Both the position numbers and the translations under genes were made by a program. Below the pieces are notes generated by a model. It was not told the DNA's origin. It searched no databases and was given only the letters and a program-made list of their open reading frames with translations. From Squalus acanthias (lineage: Eukaryota), in assembly GCA_030390025.1 (NCBI GenBank), contig CM059432.1:96226001-96290000 (forward strand): DNA of 64,000 nucleotides, given 5' to 3'. Below are positions 31,038-55,800 of the stretch, piece by piece. Position 1 is the first letter of the stretch; every line of letters starts with the position of its first letter.

Positions 31038-31070
<33 letters not shown>

Positions 31071-31513: not shown

Positions 31514-31517
31514 ACAG

Positions 31518-31554: not shown

Positions 31555-34070
31555 GGAAAAAGCTGGAGATCGAACAGGTTTTTAAGTAAGTGCAGGGGCA
31601 GAGAAAGGGGGAGGGGAGGAAAGAACAAAAGGGAAGGTCTGTGATAGGATGGAAAGCAGGAGAGATTAAGAGACATTAAGAGATGATGCAAGGCAAAAGG
31701 AGATGTTAATGGGACAAGTTAAGAAACAAAAGATGGCTCGAGATGAAGTGTCAATGGCACAGAATGAAAGACAGCTGCCATGTGGGAGAGAGAAAAAAAA
31801 ATTAAATAAGTATTTCCAGCATTTTCTGTTTTTATTTCAGATTTCCAGTATCCGCAGTATTTCGCTTTTGTATACATATCAGGGTATTGGCTTCTTTTTT
31901 TCTGTCATGCTACATAAGGGGTTAAAAACCAGCTTCACTCACTGAAAATATGTCGTAGTTTATTTTGATACAGAAGTTAGAGAAATAGTTGGCTTGTCTG
32001 AGCCAGTGTTCAATGGAAGTCTCAAGCCATTCAATTCAATCTTATGGGATTGGTTTGAATATATTATATGATTGGCAGCTCACCTGCAGTGAGGAGGATT
32101 CACTGTTTTATGGATGTAATTGTGCGCCTTTGCAAAGAGGGCATCGGTAACCTGCGTGATGCAAGTGTGTGTGGCTGACTGGGAGATGCCGCTGATGTCT
32201 GAGGAGGAGGAGGCTGTGCGCTGAGCCACTTACTCCTCAGGCCATGCTGCTGTACAATGTTGTCCAGTGCACAGCAGACCACAATGATTCTGGAGACCCT
32301 GGCTGGTGAGTACTGTAGGGCTCTAACAGATCTGTCGAGGCATCTGAATCACATTTTGAGGAAATGGGAGCTCTGACCAAGGGCTCCACAGTGACATGGG
32401 AGTGTGAGCGCTTGGAGAGGAGCCCACACTTCCTTGTTGTTGACCACCAACATCCCTCTTACCCACACTTCACTGCTAGCAAGTAGCTGGAGAGCACCTT
32501 GCTGCACTTCAGTGGGGCCATGAGGACCCATCTCTGTACTGACAGTCCTCATAACGGGGACGCCATGTAACTCTAGTTCCTCTCCTCAATAGATGCCCAT
32601 CTATCCTCCATAGCAGACCATCTATTTAGAAGAGTCACCATGTTCCTTTACATTTGGCGATTTATGTCCTCCATGGAGGTTGCCATTTTTTTCCATGGTG
32701 GCACCTACATTCGCCATTGAGTGCACCACGGCATTGCTAATGTTTGAGATGGACTCCTCCATTCTCTGCACACTCGCAGTTACAGTGGTTGCAAACCTTG
32801 TCAGAGACTCCTGCACTTGTTCCTGAAGTTCCAGCACCGCTCTCTTTCTGGATGGCCCCAGAGGCACAGCGTCCATATGCAGCTGAGCAGAGCTAGGAGC
32901 GTCCCGTGCCCTCCGACGAGGACTCTCCACTTCTATTCCTGTCTCCACCATCTGCTGATGCTCACTTGTGAGCTGTGATACACCAGTTGACAACATTAAT
33001 CTATCTCGCGAATGACCCTCCGAGGTGCGCGTCTCTGCGCTGGTGCTGGGTGCGCTCAATTCTGCTGACGCTGCTCCCTCAGAGGCTGCAGCTTCCCGAG
33101 GAGTCTTCCGGCTCTTCCTCCTGGACAGTGGGGAGGGGGGCTCTCAATGGTCCTGTGGGGGAGTAAAGGCATGAGTTAGACATGTGATATGAATGTAGCA
33201 GACACATCCCATTGTGCAGATGATCAGAACTCAATCTGTATGAACATCAGATGCCACATCAGTCACTCATGCAATCTAAATGAGAGGGTTACAAATCTAT
33301 TCTGTCACCAGCTTGCTCTACTGCACCCGTCTCTCCGTCCCTCACTTCCAGCTCCTCAGCATCTCTGACGATGTCGATAGCAGCCTCCTCAGCGGTGGTC
33401 AAGTGCGCCCTCCCCCTGTCCGCCCCCTCTCCCTCTTAGTGTGGGCTCTCATTTCCTGCCATGAGGGAGACAAGTGGAGCTTGAACGAGAATGGTGGAGT
33501 GAGTGTAGAGAATCCATAGCGTAGATGCTTAGAGGGAGACAAAGATGGAGTGAGGTGCCAATACTCTGTGCGTTGTTAGTTGTTGTAATTGCATAACAGT
33601 GATAGCGAGTGTGAGGGGTGCATAGTAGAATGATGAAGTGATTGTGTACATAGAGAGAGAGGGATGGTTAAGGGTGCAAGGGATGTAAGGTTTAGTTGGG
33701 ATGTGCAGGAGTAGGTTAACAATCCAGAGTGCTGGTGAGGCGAGGAGATGGGGAGCAGATTGAAGGCAAGTGTGATGTTATACTCAATTTTGCTGAGTGT
33801 AGCAGATCATTGAACCTTTTCCTGCACTGAACCCAGGTGCGTGAGCACAAAGACCTGGCGCTCACCTCCTCAGCAATTTGCAGCCAGATTGCCTTGGTTT
33901 GCTGAGGAGGCCTCCTCCGTCCATTTGAGGGGAACAGAACCTCTTTGCACCCTCTCACTCCCTCCACAAGAGCATAAGAACATAAGAACATATGAAATAG
34001 GAGCAGGAGTAGGCCATTCGGCCTTCGAGCCTGCTCTGCCATTCAATGAGATCATGGCTGATCTTCTGCC

Positions 34071-35579
34071 TCAACTCCATTCAGCGGCCCTATTGACATA
34101 TCCCTTGATGCCCTTACTAGTCAGAAATCTATCGACTTCTGTTTTGAATATACCCAATGACTGAGCCTCCACAGCCCTCTGGGGGAGAGAATTCCAAAGA
34201 TTCACCACCCTCTGTGTGAAGAAATTTCTTCTCATCTCAGTCCTGAATGGCCTACCCTTTATCCTGAGGCTGTGGCCCCTGGTTCTAGACTCCCCAGCCA
34301 AGGGAAACATTCTCCCAGCATCCACCCTATCAAGCCCTGTAATAATTTTGTATGCTTCAATGAAATCCCCTCTCATTCTTCTGAATTCAAGAGAATACAG
34401 GCCTAGTTTACTCAACCTCTTCTCATACGACAGTCTCGCCATCCCAGGAATCAATCTCGTGAACCTTCGTTGCACTCCCTCTATGGCAAGTATATCCTTC
34501 CTTAGGTAAGGAGACCAAAATTGTACACAGTAGACCAGGTGTGGTCTCACCAAGGCCCTATATAATTGGAGTAAGACTTCTTTACTCCTGTACTCAAATC
34601 CTCTTGTAATGAAGACCAGCATACCATTTGCCTTCCTAATGGCTTGCTGCACCTGCACATTCACTTTCAGTGACTCATGTACAAGGACACCCAGGTCCCT
34701 TTGAGCATCTGCATTCCCCAATCTTTCACCATTTAGGAAATTCTCTGCCTTTCTGTTTTTTCTACCAAAGTGGATAACTTCACATTTATCCACATTATAT
34801 TTCATCTGCCATGTTCTCGCCCACTCACTGAGCCTGTCGAGATCCCCTTGAAGCCTCTTCACATCCTCTTCACAACTGACAATGCCACCTAGCTTTGTAT
34901 CATCAGCAAATTTGGAAATGTTACATTTAGTCCCCTCATCCAAATCATTGATATAGATTGTGAATAGCTGGGGCCCTAGCACCGATCCTTGCGGTACCCC
35001 ACTAGTCACAGCCTGCCATCCTGAAAAAGACCCGTTTATCCCTACTCTTTGTTTTCTGTCTGTTAACCAATTCTCAATCCATGCTAGTATATTACCCCCA
35101 ATTCCATGTGCCCTAATTTTGTTCACCAACCTCTTGTGTGGGACCTTATCGAAGGCCTTCTGAAAATCCAAATACACCTCATCTACCAGCTCCCCTTTGT
35201 CTACTCCACTAGTTACATCCGCAAAGAACTCCAATAGATTTGTTAAACAGGATTTCCCTTTCATAAATCCATGTTGACTCTGCCCAATCTTACTATTAGT
35301 TTCTAAGTGGCCAGTTATTGCATCCTTTATAATAGATTCCAGCATTTTCCCAACTATTGATGTGAGGTTAACAGGTCTGTAGTTCCCCGTTTTCTCCCTC
35401 TCTCCTTTCTTAAATAGCGGGGTTACATTTGCTATTCTCCAATCTGTAGGAACCATTCCAAAATCTATAGAATTTTGGAAGATGACAACCAATGCGTCCA
35501 CTATCCCAATGGCCACCTCTTTCAAAACCCTAGGATGTAGGTCATCCGGTCCTTGGGATTTATCGACTTTTAGTCCCAT
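34071..35579 (-). CDS. CR1 ORF2 reverse transcriptase portion (502 aa open)
   Basis: NYRPV, DFQKAFDKV, PQGSVLGP, FADD; close homolog of 15718-18219. Confidence 0.9.
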   Translation of the reverse strand: MGLKVDKSQGPDDLHPRVLKEVAIGIVDALVVIFQNSIDFGMVPTDWRIANVTPLFKKGEREKTGNYRPVNLTSIVGKMLESIIKDAITGHLETNSKIGQSQHGFMKGKSCLTNLLEFFADVTSGVDKGELVDEVYLDFQKAFDKVPHKRLVNKIRAHGIGGNILAWIENWLTDRKQRVGINGSFSGWQAVTSGVPQGSVLGPQLFTIYINDLDEGTKCNISKFADDTKLGGIVSCEEDVKRLQGDLDRLSEWARTWQMKYNVDKCEVIHFGRKNRKAENFLNGERLGNADAQRDLGVLVHESLKVNVQVQQAIRKANGMLVFITRGFEYRSKEVLLQLYRALVRPHLVYCVQFWSPYLRKDILAIEGVQRRFTRLIPGMARLSYEKRLSKLGLYSLEFRRMRGDFIEAYKIITGLDRVDAGRMFPLAGESRTRGHSLRIKGRPFRTEMRRNFFTQRVVNLWNSLPQRAVEAQSLGIFKTEVDRFLTSKGIKGYVNRAAEWS

Positions 35580-36764
35580 TAATTTTGCTAGTACTGTTTT
35601 TTACTAATAATAATTTCTTTAAGTTTCTCATTCTTGCTACACCCTTGGTATTTCTGGGAGTTTTTTTGTGTCTTCCTCCGTGAAGACAGAAACAAAGTAT
35701 TTATTTAATTTCTCAGCCTTTTCCTCATTCCCCATTATAAATTCTCCCGTCTCTGACTGTAAAGGACCTACATTTACCTTCACCAGTCTTTTCCTTTTCA
35801 CATACCTATAGAAGCTTTTACAATCCGATTTTATATTTTTCGCTAGTTTATGCTCATATTCCATTTCTTTATCAATTTCTTGGTCCCCCCTTGCTGATTT
35901 CTAAATAGATCCCTATCCTCAGGCTGACCACTTTTTCTGGCAACTTTTTAAGTGTCCTCCTTTGACTAAATACTAGCTTTAATTTCTTTTGTTAGCCATG
36001 GTTGGATCGCTTTTCCTTTTGGGTTTTTATGCCCTAGAGGAATATATGTTTGTTGCAAATTATGCATTATTTCCTTGAATGTTAGCCATTGTATGTCCAC
36101 CTTCATACCTTTTAGTGTAGTCTCCCAATCTACCATGGCCAACTTGTCCCTCATACCATTGTAGTTTCCTCTGTTTAGATTGAAGACCTTAGTTTCAGAT
36201 TGGACTACATCACTCTCAAACTTAATGTAAAATTCAATCATATTATAGTCACTTGTCTGTAAAGGCCCCTTTACCACAAGATTATTGATTAGCCCTTTCT
36301 CATTACACAGTACCAGAATAGTCTGTTCCCTGGTTGGTTCCTCCACATACTGATCCAGGAAACCATCTTGCATGCATTCCAAGAATTCGTCCTCCACACC
36401 ATTAGTGGTAATTTGATTTGCCCAGTCAATATGTAGATTAAAGTCCCCCATGATTACCGTATGGCCCTTGTTACATGCACTTCTAATTTCTTGATTGATA
36501 CTGTGCCCTACATTACCACTACTGTTTGGTGGCCTATACACAACTCCCACCAATGTTTTCCACCCTTTGCTGTTTCTTAGCACCACCCAAATTGATTCCA
36601 GTTCAACATCACGATCTGCCGAGCCAAGATCTTTTATCTCTACCGTACCGATCCCATCCCTTATTAACAGCGCCAAGCCACCTTCTTTTCCTTTTTGTCT
36701 GTCCTTCCTAAATGTTGAGTACCCTGGAACATTCAGTTCCCAGCTTTGGTTACCCTGTAACTAT

Positions 36765-37219
36765 GGGATGGATTTTCAATGACCCGTGGAGTCGGGTTTG
36801 GAGGCGTGTGGGGGGTTAAAATAGCGAAAAGTGGCAGGCGGACATGATCCCGACTCCATTCCGTCTCCATGCAATTTTGACAAAATCGGTCGCGGTGTTC
36901 CCGACTCCATCCCGCCTCCAAGAGGCGGGAGAGGCCATTAAAGCCCTTAACAAGCCCTAAATTGGCACTGTAATGCCATTTTGAAACATTTTAGCTAGTT
37001 TAACCCTTTTCCGACGTGAAGCATGCCTGATGTGAAACACGCCAGTGAAACCTGGCGGAAGCACAAGTGGATAGCTGACAGGTCCACTATTACAACGGAG
37101 ATGTGATGAAGGTAGTAGTAGTATTAGGTCTGAAAGTCGCCTCTGATGCTGCTGCATTGAATGTCTTCAGAGACTACCTGGCCTTTGCTGTGAGAGGACC
37201 TGGATGCAAAAAAGATAGT

Positions 37220-37254
<35 letters not shown>

Positions 37255-37509
37255 GCTGCTCATTTTGCATCCAGGTCATCTCACAGCAAAGGTCAGGCAG
37301 TCTCTGAGACCAGGCAGTCTCTGAAATGCAGCAGCAATGATGACATCATCAGAGGCGACTTTCAGACTGAAACCACTAATTGGTTCATGGGTTTCCACAT
37401 GCTGGAACTCAATTGCCCAATTAGGTGAAAATTCCATCAATCTCCCACATCCAATTCCATTCGGGTGGATAACACGACCCCAACCCGCCCCAGTATCAAA
37501 ATCCAGCCC
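36765..37509. mobile_element. Harbinger-type MITE, copy 2 (inverted relative to 30758)
   Basis: TIRs GGGATGGATTTTC/CAAAATCCAGCCC, flanks TAT/CAT; splits the CR1 endonuclease right after ITETW. Confidence 0.9.
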
Positions 37510-37774
37510 CATGTCTCTGTAATGACAATTACATCATACCCATTTACTTCGATTAGTGCCATTAATTCATCCACCTTGTTGCGAATGCTACGTGCATTTA
37601 GATAAAGTGCCTTCAACTTTGCCTGTTTAATATTTTTCTGCATTTTGACCCTCTTTACTGTTGGCCTTTGTTTCTGCTCCCTACTAGCTTTGCTGACTAC
37701 TTTTCTAACTTGCACTTCCAGCTTTGTTTCTCTCCATTCTGGGCCCACACTTAGGTTCCCAGCCCCCTGACAAA

Positions 37775-38580
37775 CTAGTTTAAATCCTTCCCAACAGCAC
37801 TAGCAAACCCCCCTGCGAGGATATTGGTCCCGGTTCTGCCGAGGTGTAACCCGTCCAGCTTGTACAGGTCCCACCTTCCCCAGAATCGGTCCCAATGCCT
37901 CAGGAATTTAAATCCCTCCCGCCGACACCATCTCTCCAGCCATGCATTCATCTGGTCTATTCTCCTATTTCTGCTCTCGCTAGCACGTGGCACTGGGAGT
38001 AATCCTGAGATTGCTACCTTTGAGGTCCTGCTTTTTAATTTATTTCCTAGCTCCCTATATTCTGCTTGCAGGACCTCATCCCTCTTTCTACCTATGTCAT
38101 TGGTACCGATATGGACCATGACCTCTGGCTGTTCACCCTCCCCCTTCAGTATGTCCTGCAGCCGCTCAGTGACATCCTTGACCCTGGCACCAGGGAGGCA
38201 ACATATCATCCTGGAGTCACGTCTGCGGCCACAGAAACGTGTGTCTGTTCCCCTTATGATAGAATACCCTATCACTATTGCTCTCCCACTCTTTTTCCTC
38301 CCCTCCTATGCAGCTGAGCCACTCATAGTGCCACGGACTTGGCTCTTGCTGCATTCCCCTGAGAAACCATCTCCCCCAGCAGTATCCAAAATGGAAAAGC
38401 TGGTGGTCACCCATTCCCTTTCTGCCTGTGCAATCTTTACCTGCGGTGTGACTACCTCATTAAACGTGCTATCCACGAGGATCTCAGCCTCGCAGATGCT
38501 CCACAGTGACTCCAGCCGCAGCTCCAGATCCGAAACATAGCACAGGAGGAGCACTCCATGCTGCCGAGCTGCCCTGCCAT
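37775..38580 (-). pseudogene. CR1 ORF1 (Cys-rich/leucine zipper plus SGNH esterase), frameshifted
   Basis: MAGQLGSMECSSCAM start; IGYSIIR, CLPGA, VHIGTND, DGLHL. Confidence 0.85.
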
Positions 38581-38880
38581 GACCTACCCTTAATTTACTC
38601 CCTTTACTTCCTCTAAATTAAAGAATATTAAATACACTAGTGACCTTACTTCAGTTTACACACTACTTACTCTAAACTAGAGACCTTACGTTTAATTTAA
38701 CGACTGGACTGTAGAAATACTCACCAGGTCTTACTTACCAATCAGCTCCTTCGCTGGTTGCGACATAAATTTAGCAGTTTTGCAGTTGTTGTTGTTGTTT
38801 GACTGCTCCTGCTCTCAGACTCTTTCCTTGGTGTAAAGTAAGAACCAATTCCTACAGGGTGAAAAGTTAGGAAAAGCAAA

Positions 38881-39100
38881 GGCAAAGCAAGGGAGCTCCT
38901 CCTTCCACTCCTCACCTAACTCCCTCACTCACCCAACTCTAGCACTCTGTTCAAACCACACTCAGTGCAAATCGCACTGTCAAGCCTGTTTTTATAGGCC
39001 CTGAATCAACGGAGCTGGCTGAGCCCTGCTACAGGAAAACCAGTTTAATCTAGTTTCCCTAATTAATTGCCTTCAGCTGCTCTGAATTGTAGGCCTTGTA
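38881..39100. repeat. 220-bp direct repeat copy A (TATA-containing unit)
   Basis: 12 mismatches in 220 bp versus 45389-45608 by manual alignment; TATAAAAA on - strand at 38996-38989. Confidence 0.9.
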
Positions 39101-39172
39101 CTCTTTTGAGTAAACATAAAACTACTGTAAATTAACAGAACTTCAAATAAAACTTATCACATTAAATTAAAA

Positions 39173-42100
39173 TTACGTTGTCCGGGCAGATGATGCACTC
39201 CAGTCCCCACGGCGCCCACCGGTCTCGGAAGGCTTCAAGTGTGCCAGCGGACACCGTGTGCTCCATCTCCAGGGCCACCCGGGTGCGAACATAGCCGCGG
39301 AAGAGAGGCAGGCAATTGGGCCGAACGACCCCTCGACCGCCCGCTGCCTGGACCTGTTAATGGCCACTTTGGCCAGGCCCAGGAGCAGTCCTATGAGGAG
39401 GTCCTCCGACCTGCCCGCTCCCCTCCGCACCGGGTGACCGTAGATCAGGAGCGTGGGACTGAAGTGCAACCAAAAATCGAGGAGCAGCCCCTTCAAATAA
39501 TAGAACAGGGGCTGCAACCTTTCACATTCCACATACACGTGGAACACGGACTCTTCCAGGCCACAAAAAAGACAGGCGGCCTGGGAGTCCGTGAACCTAC
39601 TTAAAAGCTGATTGCATGGGACTGCTCCGTGCAACACCCTCCAGGCCAAGTCCCCAATAGAAAAGGGGAGGACTCCCGCGTAGAGAGCCCTCCATTGGGG
39701 ACCTCCGCCTCCGCCGGACGACAAGATGGCACGCCAAGGCGTGTCCGGACGGCAGGCGAAGATGGCAAAGTGGAGAGTGTGCAGGAGCAGCCCGTACAGG
39801 AAATCCCTCCGCGCAGAACTAAAAGGCACGGAGGGCATTTCCCCGAGATGGCTCAAGTTGTGAGGTGCCGGTTCCCGAGAGGGGTTTCGGGGCCGCGTGC
39901 CGATGAGGAATTCCGTCCGAACGGGGGTCAGTTCGGACGGGATCGCCCCACGTGCTTGAGCCTCCTCGATACACCTAGTGGAGTCGGGGCCCAGTGCCAC
40001 TTTCAGCGACTCGATGGCTTTGGCCACGCGCCAGACGTCGACCCAGGAGAGGCGCCGCACCAACTCCTCCGGCACCATCCAGCCCGCTCCTCCGCCATCG
40101 AGCAGGTCCCCAACTCTGGTCACCTTGCCAGGCACAGCCCTGCCCTCTGCCAGCCACCCGATCCGTCGGACGTGGAGGTGCGGATTCCTGAGCAGCGGCT
40201 CCCGAAGGAGAGCCGCCACTCTTGACGGGGGAGAACTCCGCCTGGAGGCGACTTGGTTCCAGACCCATAGCAGTTCCTGGTAGAAGACAGGCAGCTCCCA
40301 CAGGTAGGCACACATGCGGCCCAATTCCACAAACAGGAGCTGCGTGTCATAGTTGAGGCCATGCAGCTGGTGGAAGAAATACGTCGCCAGCGCACACCAT
40401 CTGGGAGGATTCTCAACGTAAAGGTATCTCTGCAGCGTCTGAAGATGGAAAGTCGCCGCCTGGGTGCGAAGGCACACCAGCGCCTGACCACCCTCCCTAA
40501 GCGGGAGACACAGAACCGCGGCAGAGACCCAGTGCTTCCTTTTGTCCCAGAAGAAGTCGATGAGCTTCTTCTGTATCTTGGCGACAAACGCAGGGGGAGG
40601 GATCAAAGTGACCAACCGGTACCACAACATGGCGGCCACCAGCTGGTTTATGACCAGCGCTCGGCCCCTGTAGGACAACACTCGGAGCAACCCCGTCCAG
40701 CGTCCAAGGCGAGCGGTGACTTTTGCCTCCAGCTCTTGCCAGTTCGCCGGCCAGGTGTCCTCAGCAGGGCCGAGGTAGACTCCCAGGTAGAGGAGGTGCG
40801 TTGTGCTCCAGGCGAAGGGCCTGAACTCCTCCGGCAGGGAGTCCACCCGCCACTGGCCCACCAGGAGTCCAGAACATTTCTCTTAGTTGATCCTGGCAGA
40901 GGATGCGTCCGAGTAAATCTGCTGGCATTCTCGCATCCTCCACATCGACGGGATCCGTGACCATGAGGAGCACGTCATCGGCGTAAGCCGAGAGGACGAC
41001 CTCCACGCCCGGCCCTTGCAGAGCCAGTCCCGTCAACCTCTTCCACAAGAGGCGCAGGAAAGGCTCCACGCAAACGGCGTATAACTGACCGGACATGGGG
41101 CATCCCTGACGTACCCCACTCCCGAAGCGAAGGGGCGCCGTCAAAGACCCATTAACTTTAATCAGACACTCCGGCGAGGCGTATAGAAGTCGGATCCGGG
41201 CGACAAAATGCGTCCCGAATCCGAATGCGCGCAGAGTTCCGAAAAGATACTCGTGATCCACCCTGTCGAACGCCTTCTCCTGATCCAGGGAGAGGAAGGC
41301 GACCGACAGACCAGCCCTCTGGGAATGGTGGACCAGGTCCCGGACCAGATGGATGTTGTCAGGGATGGACCGGCCCGGGACCGTGTAGGACTGGTCGGGG
41401 TGGATCATGTGGGCCAGCACGGTGCCAAGGTGGGCAGACATGGCCCTGGCAAAAATTTTATAGTCCGTGCTGAGGAGGAGACCGGGCGCCAGTTTTGTAA
41501 GAGGCGGAGATCACCCCTCTTGGGCAGCATGACGATGACCGCCCTGCGCCAAGAGAGGGGCATCTCCTTGGTCGCCAGACTTTCCCCCAGGACCCGCGCG
41601 TAGTCACCCCCCAAGACGTCCCAGAACGCCCTGTGGAACTCCACGGTGAGCCCATCCAGCCCCGGGGACTATCCCCTCGAGAGCTGGCCGAGGGCACCGG
41701 TCAGCTCCGCCAAGCTTAGCGGAGCGTCCAATTTTTCGGCGCCTTCCGGGCCAACCTTCGGCAGGTCCTCCCACAAAACTCTGCGCGCATCCTCGCTGGA
41801 TGGATCCGGAGAGAACAGAACCCCGTAGTAGGCCCGGGTCTCCGCGCTGATCCCCTCCGGATCCAAGACCGGAGATCCGTCGTCGGCCAGCAGCCCCAAG
41901 AGCTGCTTACGGACCCCCCATCTTTTTTCCAGCGAGTAGAAGAAGGGGGAGCCACGGTCCAGGTCCTGCAGGAACTGGATCTGCGACCTCACGAACGCGC
42001 CTCGGGACCCGACCAGCTGCAGGTCCTTCAGCGCGCCCTTCTTCTCTTTGTACACCTTCCGCAGGGCCGGGTCTTCGACGACTTGACCGAGACGGGACTC

Positions 42101-43053
42101 CAGGTCGAGCACCTCCCTCTCCAACCGCCCGACCCGGGCCTCCCGCCTCTTGGTCGACCCCCTCGCGTACTCTTGACAGAAGAGACGGACGTGAGCCTTG
42201 CCTACGTCCCACCATAGCCTCAAGGAGGGGAAGCCCCCCCGCTTCCTTCTCCAGTCGGCCCAGAACCGACAAAACGAATCCCGGAACCGCTCGTCCTCCA
42301 GCAGCAGGTTGTTAAAATGCCAGTACGCGGACCTCCCCAGCGCGCGCAACGGAGCGAGCTCCGCCCACACCAGGTGGTGGTCCGTGCACGGCACCGGCTG
42401 CATGGAAGCCACCGGAACGCAGGAGACGTACGCCCGGGAAATATAAACGTGGTCGATTCTGGACCTTCCTCCTCCAGACCTCACCCAAGTGAAGGCGCTG
42501 GAGTCGGGATGGAGATTCCGCCAGACGTCCACCAAGTCGAAGGACCCGACCAGGTCCCTCAACTTCACCATCGCCGCCAGGCTTCACGGAGGACCCGAAC
42601 GGTCCCTCGCCTCGAGGTACAATTAAAATCCCCCCCGAGGATGACGCACTCGCCGACGTCGATGGTGCCCAGAAGAGCGGACACTTCTTCGAAGAAGCGC
42701 ACTTGCTGCGCACTGGCCTGGGGGGCGTACACGTTCACTAAATGGAGCGGCACGCCCCCCAAGCGGCCCGGCAGATGCTCCTTGACCCCCAAGATCTCCG
42801 GCTGAAAATGCGGGGCCAGCAAGATAGCCACCCCGCCAGAAATGTTGGAGAGGTGACTCATGTTGACCCCTCCTCGCCACTCCAGGAGCCACGTGGCCTC
42901 GTCTCCCGGAATGGTGTGGGTTTCTTGCAGGAAGCACACCGCATACTTCCCGTCCCGAAGGACCGAGAAGTTATTAAATCTACAGCGTGCCTCCCTGCTG
43001 CCATTGATGTTGAGGCTGGCTATGGTTATCTTCATGACAAGAGCATAGTGCAA
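39173..43053 (-). pseudogene. Tx1 ORF2 (APE-RT-CCHC) across ORFs 42565-43053, 41669-42571, 41405-41644, 40761-41441, 39173-40861
   Basis: Consecutive domain motifs in frameshifted ORFs. Confidence 0.9.
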
Positions 43054-43066
43054 CCTCTACCTAACC

Positions 43067-44860
43067 CTAACGGGAGGAGGGAGCGCGGCCGCTAGTTGAC
43101 CGCCACTCCCTTCTCAGCCCAGCGAGGAACTTCCGGATCCGACGCCGCTCGGCCGGGCCCACGCCCCCGTCCGCGCCCATGGTTTTGACGGCGGCGCGGA
43201 CGGAGCAAACGAGCAGCGCCAGATCCGACCATTTATCAATGGCCAGCTGGATTATATCTTGGCGACCCTGGCCGATGGCCACAAAGTCCCGGAGTTCCAC
43301 AACGGGGATCAGGGGGGACCCGGAGGGGGGCACGAGGGTATCCGCCGCCTCGCTGGCGACGGAGTCCATGTCATCCTCAGTGTCCTCCGCCGGGTCCCCG
43401 TCCTCCTCCGGGGGGTCGCCATCAGCCGGCCCTACCTCTGCCCCGATCCCATCCCCAGGATCGGCGGCAGAGGAGTCCTCCCTGGGCTCCTCCAGAGGCG
43501 CCGGGTCAGGAAGCGGCGGCGGCTCGGGGCCCCCCTCCGCCCCCGGCACCGGGGTGCACGGGGAAACCGGGGAGCACATTAATGCCAGTTCCCCCAACAC
43601 CCCCGGCACCAGTGTCGGAGATGGAGTCAGGGGGCCTTCCCCTTCACCGCCACCATCCCCTGACCCAGCGGACCGGGGACCCTGGCTGAATTCCTCAACC
43701 AGGTCGAGCAGCACCTGGGAATAGTCTTGACCGTATACGGCGGGCTCAGCCTCATTGACCTCGCCCACCACGGTTCCCAGGACGCCCGACCTGGCGAGAA
43801 ACAACGGTTCGATATATAGTTCCTCCGCGGGTAGTTCCACGGCCCCCCCCCACGAGCAGGGTCTCTTCACCATCCCCGGGAGGCACAGGCTGGACAGACT
43901 CATCTGTTGTACCCTCCCGGGGGACAGGCGACTCCTGCCGGATGTCGGTGACGGTGACGGTGGGGGGGGGTGCACAGCACCCACGGCGAGCGATGACTCC
44001 CCTTGCGAGGGGGGACCCTGTTCCTCGCGGTCCTCCTCCTCCTCCAGGGCATTGCGCCTCCTTTTCAATGTGAAGGGACACGGAGGTTGGGAGACCTCCA
44101 TGTGTACTGAGGCCTCCACCTCCGCTCCCCACTGTCAAACAGTTTGCTCGGGTCTCTCGGGCCCGGGCCCGGCCGCAGGTCTTGATTTTGCTGCCTCGGC
44201 GGTTGCGGCCACAGGCTCGGGCACGAGGCCCCTCGCACTCTCGAACTCCGCCAGGTAACGGGGGCGTAAGTTCGGGTAAATCGTCCTGTACGTCAAGGGG
44301 ACCCGCCTGAAGGTGTTTACTTTTCCTCCGCGCCTTCCTTCCGATCGGACGCTCCCCCTCCCCTCCACCGGAGGCCGCGACGGCGTTGACCTCCAGCGTC
44401 GACCGCGCATCGGGTGTCGCGGACGCGTGGACAGAAATGGGGGCAGGAGCGGCGGCGGCGCCAGCCTTGGCTGCCTCAGATGTTTTGGCGGCCTTGGAGG
44501 CGGGGCAGTTCTTTCTTATGTGCCCCACCTCCTTGCAGGCGTGGCACCGCACACCGTCCGACGTCTAGAAGACGCGGTGGGCGGTACACTCGTGTTGGAC
44601 GACAAACGCGCCCTCTGTGTCCTCCTCCCGCACCAGCTGGATAAACAGCTGGCGCTGGAAGGAGAAGATGTGCCGAAGGCTGGCCTCCCTGCAGCCGAGC
44701 GGGATCGGATTAATCCCCGACCTCACCTCCCCCAGTTGACGTAGGTGGGGGAGGAGGAGCTCAACCGGAACAAAGGTCGGGACGTTTGAAAGGACAATTC
44801 GCTGCACGGTGGCCTCAAGCGGATCCACCGGCAGGAAGGTCCCGCCCACAGTGAGCCACA
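43067..44860 (-). pseudogene. Tx1 ORF1 (gag-like), N-terminus apparently missing
   Basis: LTVGGTFLPVDPLE...LSNVP, CX2CX4HX4C knuckle, long Pro/acidic region; starts abruptly at a (GT)n tract. Confidence 0.75.
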
Positions 44861-45388
44861 CACACTCACACACACCCCTTGCTGTCCCGGTCTTCTCTTT
44901 CTTCTTTCCTCCCCCCACCTAAAATACAAAGTCTTTTGGAGAGTGCCCTTTTTAACACCCACCTCTAGATGTTGTTTTCTTCTCAATGGCTCTCCCTCCT
45001 TCCAAGCAGATGTTGGTCTTGGTTTTCTTCTCCCTTCTTTCCCTCTCCTGTAATGGAGACCAGTTGGGGAGGCAATGATGTAATGGCTTCCTTCTGTTGT
45101 TGTTTTGGTCTCCTCTCCTCACTCTCCTCTCCTCTCTCCCTTCTGGCACCTCAGCAGTAGCTTTGGTAGTAGCAACAGGCGTGCTGGAGGTGGAAAGGGT
45201 CTCCACTCTTACCTTCGTGGCTCTGTCTTCTTCTCCTAGGCACAGAGAGAGACCTTTCCTCTCCTCTCCTCTCCTCTTCTCAGCACTCTGTTCAAACTGC
45301 ACTCAGTCCCGTTCACACAGCACTGAGCTGAGCTGAGCTGAGCTGAGAATCTCGCAGCCTGTGTCTCTCCAACAAAGGCGAAGGTGAA

Positions 45389-45608
45389 GGCGAAGCAAGG
45401 GAGCTCCTCCTTCCACTCCTCACCTAACTCCCTCACTCACCCAACTCCAGCACTCTGTTCAAACTGCACTTAGTGCAAATCGCACTGTGAAGCCTGTTTT
45501 TAAAGGCCCTGAAACAAAGGAGCTGGCTGAGCCCTGCTACAGGAATACCAGTTTAATCTAGTTTCCCTAATTAACTGCCTTCAGCTACTCTGAATTGTAG
45601 GCCTTGTA
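45389..45608. repeat. 220-bp direct repeat copy B; partial copies at 45710-45756 and 45281-45307
   Basis: Direct alignment to 38881-39100. Confidence 0.9.
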
Positions 45609-47020
45609 TATCCCTGTATATCCTTGCTTAAGGCTGGGAAACTTAGATTTTAACCAGTAATAATTAATGTGAAACAAACAAAAGTTTGATTTTTTAGAAA
45701 ATAGTTAAGACTCCCTCACTCACCCAACTCCAGCACTCTGTTCAAACCACACTCAGGAATGGAGGGAGTCATCATCAAATCTTGGAGAGGCCTTTGATCT
45801 TGAACCACTCATCTCTCTATCTTCCACATTGAAAAGCATCAGAAAATGAATGAAGAACCACAAGGCTGCATAGGCCCCTTAAATGCAGCTGAATGGAAGA
45901 CGTCAGCAGAAGCGAGCAGCAGACCTGAACCCACTGATTGGGCCGGGCAACGCGCACGACGGGCTTAATAAGCCCAGTTAAGGGAAAATAGTTAATGCAG
46001 AACGGATTAAACCAGCTGTGGGACCGGAACCTGCCGACCAGCCAAACTGACTCCAACCCGCCTCCACTCGGAAAATCGTGGCCTTAGTGTCTGTACAACT
46101 GAGAATCCTCAAGATTCCTCTGTAAATTCAAAGCCAACTCAACCTTAATGCATAGACCTGTCTCTCAGTAATTTTGTTTGCGCCTTCCCATGTCTCACAC
46201 CATTCTATAGTTGACAATGTGCACACCGTCTCTGTGACACATTGTGAGGAATCATAACTTTGAATCAGCATCTCACTGCTCTGTGGTGCATACATAAGAG
46301 CACCAACATAATGCACTACAGCACCATATGGTTGATATCAGTAAATGGGAAATTGATTGAACAAATACATTCCTGCTCAAGGAACATTTTCCCATGTACC
46401 TAATGCATTTAAATCAGTACTGATGAGTTTTGCCTAAAGAGCATAAGTTGATAGATGGACTAATTTAATTCCTAATTAAAAGGATCATCCATGTCCACCA
46501 TATATCATTACGTCTCTTATTTGTCTTCGTAATTCTCTCTATATCTAAATTTCCAGCCCTGTTAAATTCTCTATAGTTGTTGAACTTAGTGGCACGCTAT
46601 TACATTTTGTATACTATGGCCAGGAACGTCCTTGGTGCTGCTCCCACTCTGCTGCCGTAACTTCACAGGGAGTACGGATGAAACCCCGTTTATTCACGTA
46701 AACATTGACCCGTATTTTGCGGTAGGAATAATGGTGAAGCTATCAGCGTCAGTACAAATTTTCAATGAAATCTGGATTTTTTGGCTGCAGCCAATTGGCT
46801 TTCAGCTCTGCCGAGGCACTTTGCTGCACCATAGAAGGAAAGATGAAAACTTACCTGAGATGCTAGAAGGTTGCTGGCAATCCCTTTACAGATGTTCTGA
46901 TCTGACGGGTCTGACTAGCAACTTCTAATGCTACCCAGTTTCCGTGAGTGCTCTTCTTTTCTGCCTGATGCCATTAAGATGTCACTCATAAAATGTAAAT
47001 ACTCCTCCCTGTCTCAAAGA

Positions 47021-48506: not shown

Positions 48507-50050
48507 TTAACGGACTAGGCGGACCAGAAATAGCCGCAGACGTTTAGCTCTCTGCTTGTGACTGGAAGGCACGTCTCCCCGGACCGTGTCCTGGTCCCTG
48601 GGTCGCTTGGCCCGTACCGGTAAGTCAGTAGAGTCCGCGTCATCTTGATCATCCTGTGGAGGACTGGGAATATCATGACTCCGGGTGCGGGTCCCCACAG
48701 GTGCTGAGCTGGCCTCATCCCGGGTCGTGGCTGGAGATTGTCCGGCGTCCTGGTTTCGGGTGGCCATCCTACGGGGAGCGTCCAGCTCCCTGAGTTGATC
48801 CGGTAGCGTTGCCGGCAGATCCCCCGATGTCCCAGGCGGGGCGTCATTTTCATAGGGGTGCGGAGTGTTGATATCATTGTCGGGGGATCCTTCATCATTC
48901 GGGCCCGTGTGACCGGTTGGGCAGGGAGCCAGATCTCGGAGCGAGACGGTGGTCTCCCGGCCATCAGGGTACTGTACGTGCGCATACGTGGGGTTTACCT
49001 CCGTTAACTCCACCTCGTCAACGAGAGGGTCGTTTTTGGCAGACCGGACGAACCTCCGTAGTAGTACCGGGCCTGGAGCCACCAACCATGACGGTAGAGA
49101 CGTCCCATATGTAGAGCGACGCCGGAATTTGAAGAATCGCTCATGAGGCGTGACATTAGTAGATGTGGAGAGAAGAGACCTGATAGAGTGTAACGCGTCG
49201 GGGAGCACCGTTTCCCACTGCTGGTCCAGCAGGTTGCGTGACCTTAGTGCCAGACGGACAGCGTTCCAGATGATGGCATTGTATCGTTCAACCTGTCCGT
49301 TACCGATTGGGTGATATGGTGTCGTCTTACTTGAGGCGATTCCCCGTTGGGAGAGATAACTTTTAAGTTCACTCGACATAAAGGAGGGACCCCGATCAGT
49401 GTGGATAAAATTGGCCGTCCCGCAAAGGGAAAAGACCTGATCGAGGCATTTAATTACCGTAGAGGTAAGCATATTAGGGCAGGGGAAGGCGAAGGGAAAG
49501 CGTGAATACTCGTCCACCATCGTAAGTAGGTAGGTGTTCCTTGTCGACGAAGGCAATGGCCCTTTAAAGTCTATGCTGAGCCTCTGCATAGGCTGCATTG
49601 CATGTATGAGTAAGCCATCTGATGGGCGAAAGAATTGTGGTTTCAATTCTGCACAAATCCTACAGGAGGAGCATGTTTTCTTTACGTCCTCGGTTGAAAA
49701 TGGTAGATTTTTGGAGCGCACAAAGTGCAACATGCGGGTCACACCAGGATGGCATAAGTCCATATGCAAATCCGCCAGAGTCGACGTTGACATTGAGGAG
49801 CAAAATGCCCGTGTGAAGGTATCTGGGGCCACGTTCTGTTTGCTGGGTCGGTAACAGATAGTATATCCAAAGGCAGCCAGCTCCATCCTCCAGAGTTGAA
49901 TTTTATTATTTTTGATTTTCGTGCGCCTCCGGTTATCCAACATGAAGGCCACAGAGCGCTGGTCAGTTATAAGCGTAAAATGACGCCGAGCAAGAAAATT
50001 ACCCCATTGGCGTACAGCCTCGATGATGGCCGTAGCCTCCTTCTCGACGG
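48507..50050 (-). CDS. Gypsy RNase H C-terminus plus integrase (continuation after frameshift)
   Basis: VEKEA, TDQRS, HPG..CRIC, DDE core. Confidence 0.88.
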
Positions 50051-52806
50051 GGGGGGTAATGGAGCTCGCTACCCTGCAAGGTTCTGGATAGGAATGCCAC
50101 GGGTCGGCCACCTTGATTCAAGGTAGCGGAGATCGCCACCTCCGATGCATCGCATTCGACCACAAAAGGAAGATTTTCGTCAATGGAGCGAAGCGTGGCT
50201 TTCTCCAGCTGTCGTTTGAGGAGGTTGAAGGCAGAAATAGCCGTAGCTTCCAATGGAAAAGACTTCGCATGGAGCAGGGGCTGTATTTTATCGGAGAAGT
50301 GTGGTATCCATTTTGCGTAATAAGCAAACATGCCAAGTGCCCGACGAAGAGAGCCGAGGTTCGTCGGGGGAGGGAGCTCCTGAAGTGGACGAAGTCGCTC
50401 TGGGTCCGGTTTAATAACACCGTTGCCCACCCAGTAGCCAAGAATGTTCACCGATGGCACCGACTTCACCGATTTGGATTCGTTTAACGTTAAGTGGCGA
50501 CGGCGGAGTACGTCAAAAAATCTCTGAAGATTGGCGTCATGCTCCTTTTGATCATGGCCGGCAATAGTGATATTGTCTAAATACGGAAAGGTATCCGTCA
50601 AGTTCTCTTGCCGGACTAGGCCATCCATGGCCCGTTGGAAGACGGCCACCCCATTGGTGACCCCGAATGGAAGGCGGCGAAACTGGAAAAGCCGACCATT
50701 GGCCTCAAAGGCCGTATACTTCTTGTCGGAGTCTTGCAGTGGCACCTGATGGTACGCGCTTTTTAAATCGAAGGTCAAGAATACCTTGTATTTGGCAAGG
50801 TTGTTGACCATGTCATCTATGCGTGGCAGCGAGTAGGCATCCAGATCGGTATATAGATTAATAGTCTGCGAATAATCGATACACAGACGTTTTTTATGTT
50901 GTTTTAAGGGATTCCTCACGATGACGACCTGAGCCCGCCAGGGAGATGAACATGGCTCGATAATACCGTCGACTAAAAGGCGAGAGATTTCCGCCTCAAT
51001 AAACGCTCGATCATCTTGGCTAAAGCGCCGCGATTTGGTGGCTATGGGTTTACAGCGGGGGGGAAGATTGGCAAACAGGGAGGGTTCACCGAGTAAGGCC
51101 GCCGAGAGTGCACAAAACGGCACCTTAGAAATGGTAAGCTCCGGCCTTGACCCTCCAAACTCAAAAGTGATCTTCTTGTGCTGCTTCTGGAAGTCCTGTC
51201 CCAGAAGCACATCGCTGCATAAGTTTGCGAGTACTCCGAGCCGGGTGGAGAGATACGTGCGGCCGTTGAGGATGAGGTTGACCAGACAGAAGCCAGAAGA
51301 ATTGGTGGTCAGAGTCGTCAGAGCCATTGCAATCTCCCTGTCCGAGGGATAAATGTGCAGTTTTAACCTGTTGACAGCCCGCTTACTAATGAAGCTGTCA
51401 GAGCTGCAGGAGTCGATTAGTGCGCTTAGAGTGTGCCCATTTACTGAAACCTTCGTGGCTGCATGGGACAAACTTTGGGGAAAAACAGCCGTGATGGGAG
51501 GAGGGGCAATTTTCCCTTCGGCAACTGTAGCCTTAACAGTAGTTCTTGGGGGAGGAGCAGCTCCATAGATAGCAGCTGTGAAGCTAACAGGAGCTCTCGA
51601 CCGGTATACTTTAGAGGAGCGGCCTTTCTTGTTAGCAAAGGCCCGTGACTGGCATACCTTGGAAAAGTGTCCTTTCTTGCTGCAATGATTGCAGGTCACA
51701 TTACGAGCCGGGCAAAATTTTCTGTGATGGCACGCCCCTCCACAAAAGAAACACTTTCTTCCTGATTGCCAGGATGCTGCTAGGGCGGGGTCGTCATCAG
51801 CGAAGGCCTCTAGGGTAGGGTCGTCGTCCATTAGAGTAGAGTCAACATCAGTGGGGGCATCCGCCCGAGACCTACCGAAAGACTCATTAAAGGAGATAGC
51901 CGCCGCCCGTGCACGTGGTGGGAGATAAGTGTCTGCATTTTTCTTGGCCAAGTCCAAGGAACACGCCTGGTCATAAGCAGCCCGTAAATTGAGGGTTTTA
52001 TTTTCCAGCAGGCGCTGACGTATAAAAGGGGACGCGATTCCATTGATAAAGGAATCGCGGATTAGTTCCTCTTGATACTGTTCAGCTGAAACTGCTTTAA
52101 GGTTACAATCCTTGCTGAGCCTGCGAAGTTTCTGGAGAAATTCATCGAGTGATTCCCCAGGCTGCTGCCGAGTTGTGGCCAGTAGGTGTCGAGCAAAGAT
52201 TTCATTTGGGGACTTGACATATAGCTGCTGTAAGATTTCGATAGCAGTGTCATAGTCTATACAGTCCTCAATATAATCATACACATGAGGAGACACGTGG
52301 TTGATAAGCATTCGTAACTTATTAGGGACATCCGCCCCACATTCTTCAAGAAAGTTGCTAAAGGTACGAAACCAATGCTTCCATACCTTTGCATTTATGA
52401 AGCCCAAGATCCCATATGCTTTGCTAACCATTCTCTCAATATGTCCTGCCACTTTCAGGGACCTTTGCACATTAACTCCCAGGTCCCTCTGTCCCTGCAC
52501 ACTCTTTAAAACTGTGCCATTAAGTGTATATTGCCTCTCCCTGTTCCTTCTGCCAAAATGCATCACCCCACATTTCTCTGTATTAAATTCCATCTGCCAC
52601 TTGTTTGCCCATTCTGCTAGCCTTTCTATGTCCTGTTGCAATTGATTGGTATCATTCTCACTGTTTGCCACACCCCCAAGTTTGGTCTCATCGGCAAATT
52701 TAGAAATTCTACTCTGTATTCCAATATCCAGGTCATTTATATATATCAAAAATAGCAGTGGCCCCAGCATTGACCCTTGGGGAACACCACTGTCTACCAT
52801 CTCCAT
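49999..52806 (-). CDS. Chimeric 935-aa ORF: CR1 RT fragment fused in frame to Gypsy gag-PR-RT-RNaseH
   Basis: PQGSMLGP..FADE..GILGFIN (CR1) | AKVWKHWFRTF (gag); junction at 52392/52393. Confidence 0.8.
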   Translation of the reverse strand: MEMVDSGVPQGSMLGPLLFLIYINDLDIGIQSRISKFADETKLGGVANSENDTNQLQQDIERLAEWANKWQMEFNTEKCGVMHFGRRNRERQYTLNGTVLKSVQGQRDLGVNVQRSLKVAGHIERMVSKAYGILGFINAKVWKHWFRTFSNFLEECGADVPNKLRMLINHVSPHVYDYIEDCIDYDTAIEILQQLYVKSPNEIFARHLLATTRQQPGESLDEFLQKLRRLSKDCNLKAVSAEQYQEELIRDSFINGIASPFIRQRLLENKTLNLRAAYDQACSLDLAKKNADTYLPPRARAAAISFNESFGRSRADAPTDVDSTLMDDDPTLEAFADDDPALAASWQSGRKCFFCGGACHHRKFCPARNVTCNHCSKKGHFSKVCQSRAFANKKGRSSKVYRSRAPVSFTAAIYGAAPPPRTTVKATVAEGKIAPPPITAVFPQSLSHAATKVSVNGHTLSALIDSCSSDSFISKRAVNRLKLHIYPSDREIAMALTTLTTNSSGFCLVNLILNGRTYLSTRLGVLANLCSDVLLGQDFQKQHKKITFEFGGSRPELTISKVPFCALSAALLGEPSLFANLPPRCKPIATKSRRFSQDDRAFIEAEISRLLVDGIIEPCSSPWRAQVVIVRNPLKQHKKRLCIDYSQTINLYTDLDAYSLPRIDDMVNNLAKYKVFLTFDLKSAYHQVPLQDSDKKYTAFEANGRLFQFRRLPFGVTNGVAVFQRAMDGLVRQENLTDTFPYLDNITIAGHDQKEHDANLQRFFDVLRRRHLTLNESKSVKSVPSVNILGYWVGNGVIKPDPERLRPLQELPPPTNLGSLRRALGMFAYYAKWIPHFSDKIQPLLHAKSFPLEATAISAFNLLKRQLEKATLRSIDENLPFVVECDASEVAISATLNQGGRPVAFLSRTLQGSELHYPPRREGGYGHHRGCTPMG

Positions 52807-55800
52807 TTTGAAAAACAGCCATTTACCACAACTCGCTGTTTTCTATCCTTAAGCCAATTCCTTATCCAAGCTGCCACTGACTCACTTATTCCACGAGCCT
52901 AAATTTTGTTAACCAGCCTTCTATGTGGAACTTTGTCAAACGCTTTCCTAAAATCCATGAAGACAACAGCCATTGCATTCCCTTCATCAATCCTCCCTGT
53001 TACTTCATCAAAAAATTCAATTAGATTAGTCAAACACGATCTGCCTTTTACAAATCCGTGTTGGCTCTCCTCAATTAGCTTAAACCTCTCCAAGTGCACA
53101 TTAATTTTTTCCTTGATTATTGTTTCTAAAACTTTACCCACCACTGATGTTAAACTGACCGGCCTATAGTTACTAGAATTGTCCTTACACCCTTTCTTCA
53201 ATAATGGTGTCACATTTGCCACTTTCCAATTCTCAGGCACCTCCCCCGCATCTAGGGAAGATTGGAAAATTATGGCAAGCCCTTCCGCTATCTCCTCCCC
53301 CAATTCCCTTAGCAACCTGGGATGCAAGTCATCTGGGCCAGGCGACGTGTCCACTCTAAGCATGCCCAGCCTTTCTAGTACATCCTGTCTATCAATTTTC
53401 ACCCCTTCTACCTTTTCCACTTCTACCGATATTTTTCAGCATCCACCTCCTTAGTAAACACCGATACGAAGTATACATTGCGTATTCTAGCCTTGCCCTG
53501 CGTCTCTAAGCATATATCACCTTCTTTGTCCCTAATAGGCCCCACCCTGCCTCTTACTACCTGCTTACTGTTTACATGCCGGTAGAAGATTTTTGGATTC
53601 CCTTTTATGTTAATCGCCATTCTACTCTCATATTCTCTCTTTGCCAATCTTATTTTCATCTTCACTTCCCCTCTCAACTGATTGTATTTGGTCTGGTTCT
53701 CCCTTGAAGAATTCACCTGACATGCATCATACACGCTCTTTTTTTTTCATCATCTTCTCTATCTCCTTTGTCATCCAAGGAGCCCTGGCTTTGGTTCCCT
53801 TACCCTTCCCTCTTGTTGGAATGTACCTAGCCTGTACTTGGAACATCTTGGAAGTTCCACTCTAGATTGTTCCTTGCTCCTCTCCATTGTTAATCTAAAT
53901 CTTATGATACGATGATCACTCCTAGCCAAGCGTTCTCCCACAAACACTTGGTCGACCTGGCCCACCTCATTCCCCAGCACCAGGTGCATTTCCTCCTTCC
54001 TAGTTGGGCCAAGAAAATATTGGTCAAGGAAATTCTCCTGAACACATTTCAGAAATTCCTCCCCCTCATTTCTCTTGACCCTAGCATCATCCCAATCGAT
54101 ATTTGGGTAATTAAAGTCCCCCAATATCACCACTCTATAGCTCTTGCATATCTCTGTGATTTCCCTGCAGATTTGCTCCTCTACTTCCCTCTCACTATTT
54201 GGAGGCCTATAGAATACCCCCACTCGCGTGATCATACCCTTTTTGCTCCTCAACTCTAACCAAATGGATTCTGGCCTTGTCCCCTCAAGAACATCCTCCC
54301 TTTCCAACACTACAATGTCTTCCTTAATCAGCACTGCCACCCCACCTCCCTTTTTTCCTTCCCTATCTTTTCTGAACACCTTGTACCCTTGAATATTAAG
54401 TGCCCAGTCCTCACTGCTTTCGTTATTGCCACAACATCATATTGCCACACGACTAATTGTGCCTATATCTCAACAACCTTATTCACCACACTTTGTGCAT
54501 TTATGTACATGTATTCTAAACCCATTTTTGAATTTTTCGGAGTCTTTCTTGGTCTGCTCCTATCTAATATGGTACTACTTCCGCCTCTCATACTTCTTTC
54601 TTCTCTAGTACTATCCAACACACTCACTCTTTTATGCACCTTATTCCTCTTTTCTACTCCTATATGTTGGTGCCCATCACCCTGCCAAGCCAATTTAAAT
54701 GCTCCCCAACAGCACCAGCAAACCCCCCTGCGAGAATATTGGTCCTGGCTCTGTTGAGGTATAACCCGTCCAGCTTGTACAGGAGATTACTACCTTTGAG
54801 GTCGTGCTTTTTAATATCTTTTCTAGCTCCCTATAGTCTGCCTGCAGGATCTCATCCCTCTTTCTGCCTATGTCATTGGTACCGATATGGACAACGACCT
54901 CTGGCTGTTCACCCTCCCCCCTCAGAGTGTCCTGCAGCCGCTCAGTGACTTCCTTGACCCTGGCACCAGGGAGGCAACATACCATCCTGGAGTAGCGTCT
55001 ACATCCACAGAAACGTCTATCTGCTTCCCTAACTAATGAATCCCCTATCACTATTGCTCTTCCACTCTTCTTCCTCCCCCCCTGTGCAGCTGAGCCACCC
55101 GTGGTGCGGTGACCTTGGCTGTGGCTGCTCTCCCCAGAGGAACCATCACCCCCACCAGTTTCCAGAACTGTGAACCGGTTAGTGAGTGAGATGCACTCTG
55201 GGGATTCCTGCCCTACCTGCCTGGTCCTCCTTCTCTGTCTGCTCGGTCACCCATTCCCTCTCTGCCTGCACATTCTGAGGCTGCGGGGTGACCACTTCTA
55301 GAAATGTGCTTTCCAAGTATTTCTCAGCCTCGCGGATGCACTGTAGTGACTTCAGCTGCCGCTCAAGCTCTGAAACCCGGAGCTCGAGTTACTGCAGTTG
55401 GCGACACTTCCTGCACACATCGTCGTCCAGGCCGCAAGAAGCATCCAGGATTTCCCACATGGCACAGGATGTGCAAATCACAGGACTGAGCTGCCCTGCC
55501 ATGCCTCTATTTACCAGACTATGGAGGTAATTTGGCAGAAATAAACTTAAAACTTAACAAGAAACACTCAACAGCTACCCACCAATCAGCACTTCCCTCT
55601 ATTAGATAGGCTATGAACTACTTAGCAGAAATATACTCAAACAGAACGAAAAAAAACTTACCACAAATACTCACCCGACACTCACCCGATACTCACCTCC
55701 CAGCTCCCTTGTGCCAGCAACACCTTCAAATTCTGATGTCACTCCTTCGTTGTGTCACTTGCCGACTGTTTCCCTTGCAGATCGTCCGCTCACTCAGACT

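Follow-up and report, generated by a model that had tools for sequence, protein, structure and literature searches.

A Tx1-Clade LINE Between Two Copies of a Putative CR1 Promoter Segment in Squalus acanthias: A Candidate Promoter-Targeting System

INTRODUCTION

A 64,000-nt stretch of the Squalus acanthias genome (NCBI GenBank assembly GCA_030390025.1, contig CM059432.1, positions 96,226,001 to 96,290,000 of the forward strand; hereafter the window) contains a long interspersed nuclear element (LINE) of the Tx1 clade that lies in the 5′ head of a second LINE, of the CR1 type, between two direct repeats of a segment of that head. We lean, with slightly more belief than doubt, towards the explanation that a Tx1 subfamily targets a site that precedes the CR1 start by 135 bp, has an RNA headed by the CR1 leader, and rebuilds the CR1 promoter by pairing with the target. 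An earlier interpretation, made from the letters and open reading frames (ORFs) of this DNA (the sequence-only reading), had proposed such a cut, with a promoter copy regenerated on both sides of the insertion. The layout of the block, the other copies seen in public sequencing runs, and the alleles shared or not shared by the two repeats are considered below, followed by the explanations that compete to account for them.

A TX1 ELEMENT WITHIN A CR1 HEAD

The direct repeats had been described as 220 bp long with 12 mismatches. They are real and each is 2 bp longer, with copies A and B aligning ungapped over 222 bp at the same mismatch count (E = 3e-97, search within the window). In sense orientation, the block starts with R1 (47 bp), followed by the spacer X (101 bp), the segment U with a TATA motif (135 bp), and R-L (87 bp together), and continues with Tx1, U, R-L, and CR1 (Table 1). 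With Tx1 and one U-R-L unit removed, the host head is R-X-U-R-L, i.e., one 283-bp period plus R, and Tx1 sits exactly at the boundary between X and U. The 47-bp third copy that had been noticed at the outer end of the block, here R1, was recovered at 45710–45756 (46 of 47 letters identical to copy A and 44 of 47 to copy B), as was a fourth copy in the Tx1 leader, here R4 (45281–45307; 26 of 27 letters identical to copy B, E = 3.6e-6). The Tx1 3′ tip abuts the first base of copy A without poly(A), as had been stated, the only A run there being an A4; no microhomology between the tip and the host spacer was seen at this 3′ junction.

The outer limits of the block are given by an older repeat that it splits. 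This unclassified repeat of 1.5–1.9 kb is present in three copies (9929–11814, 18986–20496, and 32357–33975 plus 45757–46088), the third being the interrupted one, and the two intact copies serve as empty sites (at ~11487 and ~19290). In the empty-site alignment, the left flank runs to ~33974 and the right flank begins at 45757–45760, with 0–2 bases in common. This independently fixes the 5′ end of the whole insertion at 45756, where the sequence-only reading had placed it.

The element between the repeats is, by its sequence, a Tx1-clade LINE. A profile scan of its ORFs found an apurinic/apyrimidinic endonuclease (APE; PF03372), a reverse transcriptase (RT; PF00078), zf-RVT, and a zinc knuckle; the CCHC knuckle of ORF1 matched PF00098 at E = 2.5e-4, and the C-terminal part of ORF2 scored 27.4 bits for PF13966 against a cut-off of 27.5. 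Matches of the endonuclease in PDB are L1-type endonucleases. The closest named ORF2 is that of Xenopus Tx1 (the best of five matches), to which 91% of the C-terminal ORF2 piece aligns at 44% identity. Residues 1–1294 of the 1308 in the Xenopus protein are covered in five pieces, and the copy is dead because its ORF2 has four frame changes and three stops. No start codon was seen in the translation of ORF1, and protein searches with two ORF1 pieces gave zero matches; the ORF1-like reading starts directly behind a GT run (Tx1 leader, 44862–45386), which suggests an internal deletion. Pattern scans of metagenome contigs and viral contigs returned no matches, and Rfam gave 0 matches in the window.

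The flanks of Tx1 had been called similar in style to long terminal repeats (LTRs). Flanking repeats exist, but they are host DNA and the wording is merely descriptive: the integrase and RNase H domains of an LTR retrotransposon are absent from the six Tx1 ORF pieces scanned, and the repeat is present without Tx1 in CR1 heads and is thus not an element-borne LTR.

CR1 elements are marked by an ORF1 with an SGNH esterase, an ORF2 with APE and RT, a 3′ tail of short tandem repeats, and little or no target duplication. All of these features are found in the host, which is thus a CR1-type LINE as judged from sequence: its ORF1, from 38581, carries the SGNH esterase, its ORF2 (APE, RT) is broken by stops and a 760-bp insert (36761–37518), and its 3′ end is a short-repeat tail that ends near 33974. 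The inserted 760-bp element has an inverted copy of 82% identity 5 kb away (30749–31517).

OTHER COPIES IN PUBLIC SEQUENCING RUNS

Parts of the stretch are contained in 20 public runs, none of which holds more than 0.39 of its words; this is the word sharing expected if the locus itself is absent and the copy differs from its repeat family by about 3%. No RNA run is listed among the 20, which has no bearing on expression. Four of the runs, all consisting of contigs, were compared in detail: X1 and X3 come from two studies of organism A, X6 from organism B, and X9 from organism D. Of the 280 loose-end rows, 24 are displayed, as are 32 of the 2485 pieces; the table for the whole stretch covers 24 of 5146 loose-end rows.

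The sequence-only reading named a case that would speak against it, namely that CR1 copies free of Tx1 already carry two full monomers; the displayed heads have one unit, preceded by X. Among the rows listed, 8 contigs of run X1 (23 of 30 letters) and 14 contigs of run X9 (26 of 30) have, behind 39100, sequence that matches X (45609–45638). None of the six loose-end rows shown for X3 or X6 matches X, and a joint from 39100 back to 38879 is not among the eight joints listed. The presence of X before U in Tx1-free heads indicates a single unit there, and makes two pre-existing units unlikely. Variation was also seen among copies. In other CR1 heads, a second TATAAA-like motif lies at the end of X, 7–12 bases before the insertion site (45609–45620), and has two changes in the present copy; a variant of U that lacks ~50 bp just upstream of the TATA motif (38999–39050) is present in X3, X6, and X9; and another head variant departs at 39088 in X1 and X3.

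Among the four runs, the tip of Tx1 (39106–39117) was seen in organism A only, with a depth of 3733 in X1 and 4766 in X3 and 0 in both X6 and X9. In organism A, its depth is ~0.3 of that found deeper within the 3′ untranslated region (UTR). Across the 3′ junction, relative depth in X1 falls smoothly (1.0, 0.99, 0.79, 0.60), which fits a population of molecules that span it, while the runs without the tip give 1.0, 0.62, 0.15, 0 and 1.0, 0.54, 0.13, 0. The 12 loose-end rows shown for X1 and X3 include none at 39101, and X1 record 4 extends seven letters beyond the 3′ junction, below the 31-letter rule for a bridge. At the other end of the element, the unit is followed in one contig of X3 by 19 letters of the Tx1 leader (45355–45373) without a mismatch, one 6-mer closer than in the window; on account of this shift it is probably another copy. 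X3 record 12, by its coordinates, is not this contig. A further reading of the depths, that Tx1 3′ ends outnumber units by ~25:1, was rejected, since the high depth belongs to other tails and ORF2.

A PUTATIVE TATA PROMOTER AND ITS 5′ FOOTPRINTS

The minus strand of copy A has TATAAAAA, with its first T at 38996, and copy B carries a T>A variant, both as first described. The proposed spacing is also borne out: 45756 corresponds to 38965, which is 31 nt downstream of the first T of the TATA motif; the repeat begins 135 nt ahead of 38965. An initiator-like TGCACT, in keeping with the known initiator consensus, is found in U of copy A; its A, at 38966, follows that first T by 30 nt. R4 starts on this initiator A (19 of 20 letters identical to copy B) and R1 starts one base later. 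A degenerate fifth copy begins at 45328, 21 bp before R4, with 15 of 20 letters, a score that only 2 of the ~128,000 positions of the two strands reach. The strongest sequence-based argument for U as a promoter is that two independent 5′ footprints lie at the predicted start, and we infer that U would act as a TATA promoter, with transcription starting at R.

In each of the four runs, most of the depth carries the TATA allele of copy A, and position 38995 is not among the variable positions (10% level) in any of them. Thus, the TATA motif of copy A is the family state and that of copy B a later change. The earlier statement that parasite and host each keep a TATA promoter stands for the time of insertion, when both copies probably had the motif, but not for the present, in which the TATA motif of copy B is mutated.

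Further motifs lie near these footprints. A (CTGAG)5 array beside the fifth copy in the Tx1 leader (45281–45328) repeats the first letters of R. In three copies R ends in a splice-donor-like motif (38933, 45441, and 45724), and both leaders have acceptor-like sites (38852 in CR1 and 45236 in Tx1); splicing is putative.

ALLELES AND THE ORIGIN OF THE TWO REPEATS

Copy A has six private changes (38884, 38940, 38958, 39006, 39010, and 39067) and copy B five to six (38957, 38981, 38995, 39038, and 39079 in coordinates of copy A). This symmetry fits copies A and B that were identical at insertion. Within U, both copies have T at 38980/45488, where 97.8–99.5% of the depth in the four runs is another letter and the shared allele makes up at most 0.5–2.2%. 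Leaving aside the differences between A and B, the two copies also agree at all seven other listed common-variant sites in U. A shared rare allele together with seven agreeing sites points to U of both copies being from one molecule, duplicated from the local target; the 135-bp TATA part was thus probably duplicated on site.

A different history is suggested for R-L. The copy B allele at 45471 (equivalent to 38963, the third base of R) accounts for 26% and 20% of the depth in X1 and X3, and for 3% and 2% in organisms B and D. In organism A, this allele has a depth (636 and 1166) similar to the value for the Tx1 leader bin, which is at least 781 in X1 and 1577 in X3, and 0 and 0.09 in organisms B and D. 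The split of the allele therefore follows the split of the Tx1 tip and leader among the runs, which suggests that the R-L of copy B came with the Tx1 RNA. The 222 bp are probably of two origins: the target would have supplied 135 bp, and the Tx1 RNA, with its head, as many as 87 bp. Grouping copy A with R1 and copy B with R4 at 38957–38958 was considered as evidence of lineage and rejected, as the majority letters form a CpG and both changes are thus CpG decay in opposite directions.

OTHER FEATURES OF THE WINDOW

The unit is absent from the other two CR1 copies in the window, one of which is 5′-truncated while the other has a different head. A second CR1 (52396–55700), whose head has an 11-bp tandem of donor-like motifs and lacks the unit, is interrupted by ORFs of a Gypsy-type LTR retroelement (protease, RT, RNase H, and integrase; 48507–52842). 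A 327-aa frame at 4809–5789 has a weak Myb/SANT match (PF13837, E = 1.9e-4) and possibly belongs to a Harbinger-type element.

Table 1. Features of the CR1 and Tx1 block, in positions of the window.
Feature	Position	Strand	Basis or remark
R1, first 47 bp of the CR1 insertion and 5′ end of the whole block	45710..45756	(-)	GT donor-like motif at 45724
X, AT-rich spacer in the CR1 head (101 bp)	45609..45709	(-)	X end precedes the unit in Tx1-free copies
Repeat copy B	45387-45608	(-)	Within-window self-comparison
U of copy B (135 bp) with a mutated TATA motif; probable duplicate of target DNA	45474..45608	(-)	
R-L of copy B, CR1 leader (87 bp) that probably headed the Tx1 RNA	45387..45473	(-)	
Tx1-clade LINE body, decayed	39101-45386	(-)	
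Tx1 5′ leader, non-coding, with relic heads	44862..45386	(-)	Acceptor-like site 45236
Tx1 ORF1 remnant, broken, zinc knuckle	43070..44861	(-)	Translation
Tx1 ORF2 (APE, RT, zinc motif), five pieces	39174..43038	(-)	
Tx1 3′ UTR, no poly(A); last ~23 bp subfamily-specific, seen in organism A only	39101..39173	(-)	
Repeat copy A	38879-39100	(-)	Within-window self-comparison
U of copy A, target site 39100/39101	38966..39100	(-)	TATAAAAA at 38996-38989
R-L of copy A, CR1 leader	38879..38965	(-)	Donor-like motif at 38933
Host CR1-type LINE: leader remainder, ORF1, ORF2, 3′ tail	33974..38878	(-)	

THE FAVOURED EXPLANATION AND ITS RIVALS

According to the explanation that we favour, the TATA motif in U would start transcription at R, and a Tx1 copy located behind U-R-L would be transcribed with R-L as its head and would need no promoter of its own. 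The Tx1 endonuclease would nick the boundary between X and U in another CR1 head and prime reverse transcription there. The end of the finished complementary DNA (cDNA), complementary to R-L, would then pair with or jump onto the R-L of the target, 135–222 bp downstream of the nick. Resolution would copy U from the target and give X-U-R-L-Tx1-U-R-L-CR1, with a TATA motif for each element. Both copies of the repeat and both sets of ORFs have decayed since the insertion. Much of the earlier proposal of a cut ~135 bp upstream of the CR1 start with regeneration of the promoter is retained here, as the repeat represents the CR1 5′ head, which forms no array of two units in the displayed Tx1-free copies, duplication on site is probable from 38980, and a second junction of unit and leader occurs in X3.

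Several points weigh against this explanation, and the first two also limit the support for the earlier proposal. No contig among the 32 of 2485 pieces displayed bridges either Tx1 junction by 31 letters on each side, the 3′ junction included, and Tx1 relatives with other tails leave the stretch at 39124–39125 in all four runs and do not join the unit. These other tails make up ~70% of the Tx1 3′-UTR depth in organism A and all of it in organisms B and D; any targeting would thus be a property of one Tx1 subfamily. The depth across the 3′ junction in X3 (1.0, 0.51, 0.16, 0.10) is unlike that in X1, and all such values are summed contig depths, which are not copy number. The donor origin of R-L is drawn from a single site, and we estimate the chance of a private change hitting one of the ~8 polymorphic sites at roughly 1 in 10. 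Mismatches are spread evenly over the repeat (7 of 135 in U and 5 of 87 in R-L; Fisher p = 1.0), as a plain 222-bp target duplication would give. Finally, the models for the R1 retrotransposon, in the part of that work considered here, have the cDNA pair with target sequence upstream and call this impossible after downstream cleavage (PMC2718515), and the pairing 135 bp downstream of the nick that would rebuild the promoter is an extrapolation.

An alternative possibility, which we regard as unlikely, is that one or a few old Tx1 insertions in a CR1 head were copied on as CR1-driven composites starting at R1, such that the recurrence of the junctions reflects amplification rather than repeated targeting. 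The whole block indeed has one 5′ end, one 3′ end, and a CR1-type scar. Copies A and B share one rare allele and differ at 12 positions, which would date the duplication to about the time when this CR1 left the active pool, and sister composites could be the source of both the X3 junction and the organism A allele. Such copying does not on its own account for the relic heads in the Tx1 leader (R4 and the degenerate fifth copy), and these suggest that heads were captured in earlier rounds. Moreover, the private alleles of copy A are rare in the runs (e.g., 0–1.4% at 39006), which indicates that the pair of A and B is not an abundant composite there. Amplification by CR1 is compatible with the targeting explanation as a second route and is not exclusive of it.

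It is more doubtful still that the block is a single event, in which a non-selective Tx1 inserted into an abundant CR1 head and made a plain target-site duplication that, at 222 bp, was unusually long. The even spread of mismatches, the symmetric private changes, and the abundance of CR1 heads all suit such an event, and long duplications exist, e.g., 126 bp in R9 (PMC6895275). Duplications by LINEs with an APE are usually 10–20 bp according to the same account, and a single event would leave two further observations aside: the Tx1 leader already has a 26/27 copy of the host start motif that begins on the initiator base, and a second junction of unit and leader is found in X3. Least probable of all is that Tx1 landed between two U-R-L units already present, or that later recombination or gene conversion homogenised the copies, since the repeat unit of the host is R-X-U and not U-R-L, displayed Tx1-free heads have X and then U, and no back-joint is among the eight listed, even if the head is monomer-like (R twice, with a period of 283 bp) in the manner of mouse L1 monomers (PMC6454616).

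RELATION TO KNOWN SYSTEMS

Tx1 families that target transposons have been described, including Tx1L in Tx1D in Xenopus, the crocodilian Tx1-Mar in Mariner-N4_AMi, Tx1-8_Crp and Tx1-4_AMi in LTR elements, and Tx1-9_AMi in Harbinger (PMC4494074; Kojima, 2015). In that work, a family is taken as target-specific if >20% of its flanks share the target. These families resemble the present element in their clade, their insertion in a transposon, and heads derived from other RNAs, and transcription from the flanking target, as envisaged here, was proposed for SINEU (PMC4494074). In contrast, the targets named in the part of that account considered here are DNA transposons, LTR elements, snRNA genes, and microsatellites, while here the target would be a LINE promoter. 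Its duplications are ~10–16 bp and the rebuilding of a TATA promoter is not described in the same part, while here 222 bp with a TATA motif are duplicated.

Other site-specific LINEs share single features with the proposed system. R9 of Adineta vaga is likewise site-specific with a very long duplication (126 bp), but it is of the type with a restriction-like endonuclease, is inserted in ribosomal DNA, and duplicates DNA that is not a Pol II promoter (PMC6895275). R2Bm and the melanogaster-type R1A use the target's promoter for their transcription, and the 5′ end of their RNA, which contains target sequence, pairs at the 5′ junction (PMC6895275; PMC2718515). In these elements the shared sequence lies upstream of the nick and junctions are precise or deleted, whereas here it lies 135 bp downstream and pairing would duplicate a promoter. 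In the established model, pairing or a jump between cDNA and target precedes second-strand cleavage and involves melting of the duplicated stretch (PMC6895275; PMC2718515).

In Drosophila, HeT-A similarly takes its promoter from outside the copied unit, and the regeneration of 5′ repeats by template jump that has been proposed for TART is a likeness to the present case (PMC1636488). The repeats of HeT-A and TART are owned by the elements themselves, whereas here they are owned by an unrelated host LINE (PMC1636488). As for the host, its CR1 head resembles a short array of monomers that share a common start, as in mouse L1Md (PMC6454616), but it has one full TATA-type period of 283 bp plus R, and this likeness concerns the host and not Tx1. 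No description of the present Tx1 and CR1-promoter system was found in searches of an open-access library.

IMPLICATIONS

How LINEs prime the second strand, and how they retain promoters despite 5′ loss, are open questions. The wider reading of the present block is that a vertebrate LINE lineage without a promoter lives on that of CR1, by a cut at one base before the TATA segment, a CR1 leader as RNA head, and duplication of the promoter with each full-length insertion. LTR-like flanks would then be made from host DNA, the host promoter would stay intact, and the relic heads in the Tx1 leader would stem from earlier rounds. We hold this wider reading tentatively, at a little less than even confidence. 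If it is true, the length of the duplication would be set by the homology of RNA head and target downstream of the nick, with long duplications at full-length copies and short ones at truncated copies. It would also provide a route to LTR-like flanks and to promoter monomers in LINEs, and LINE promoters would join the known targets of Tx1.

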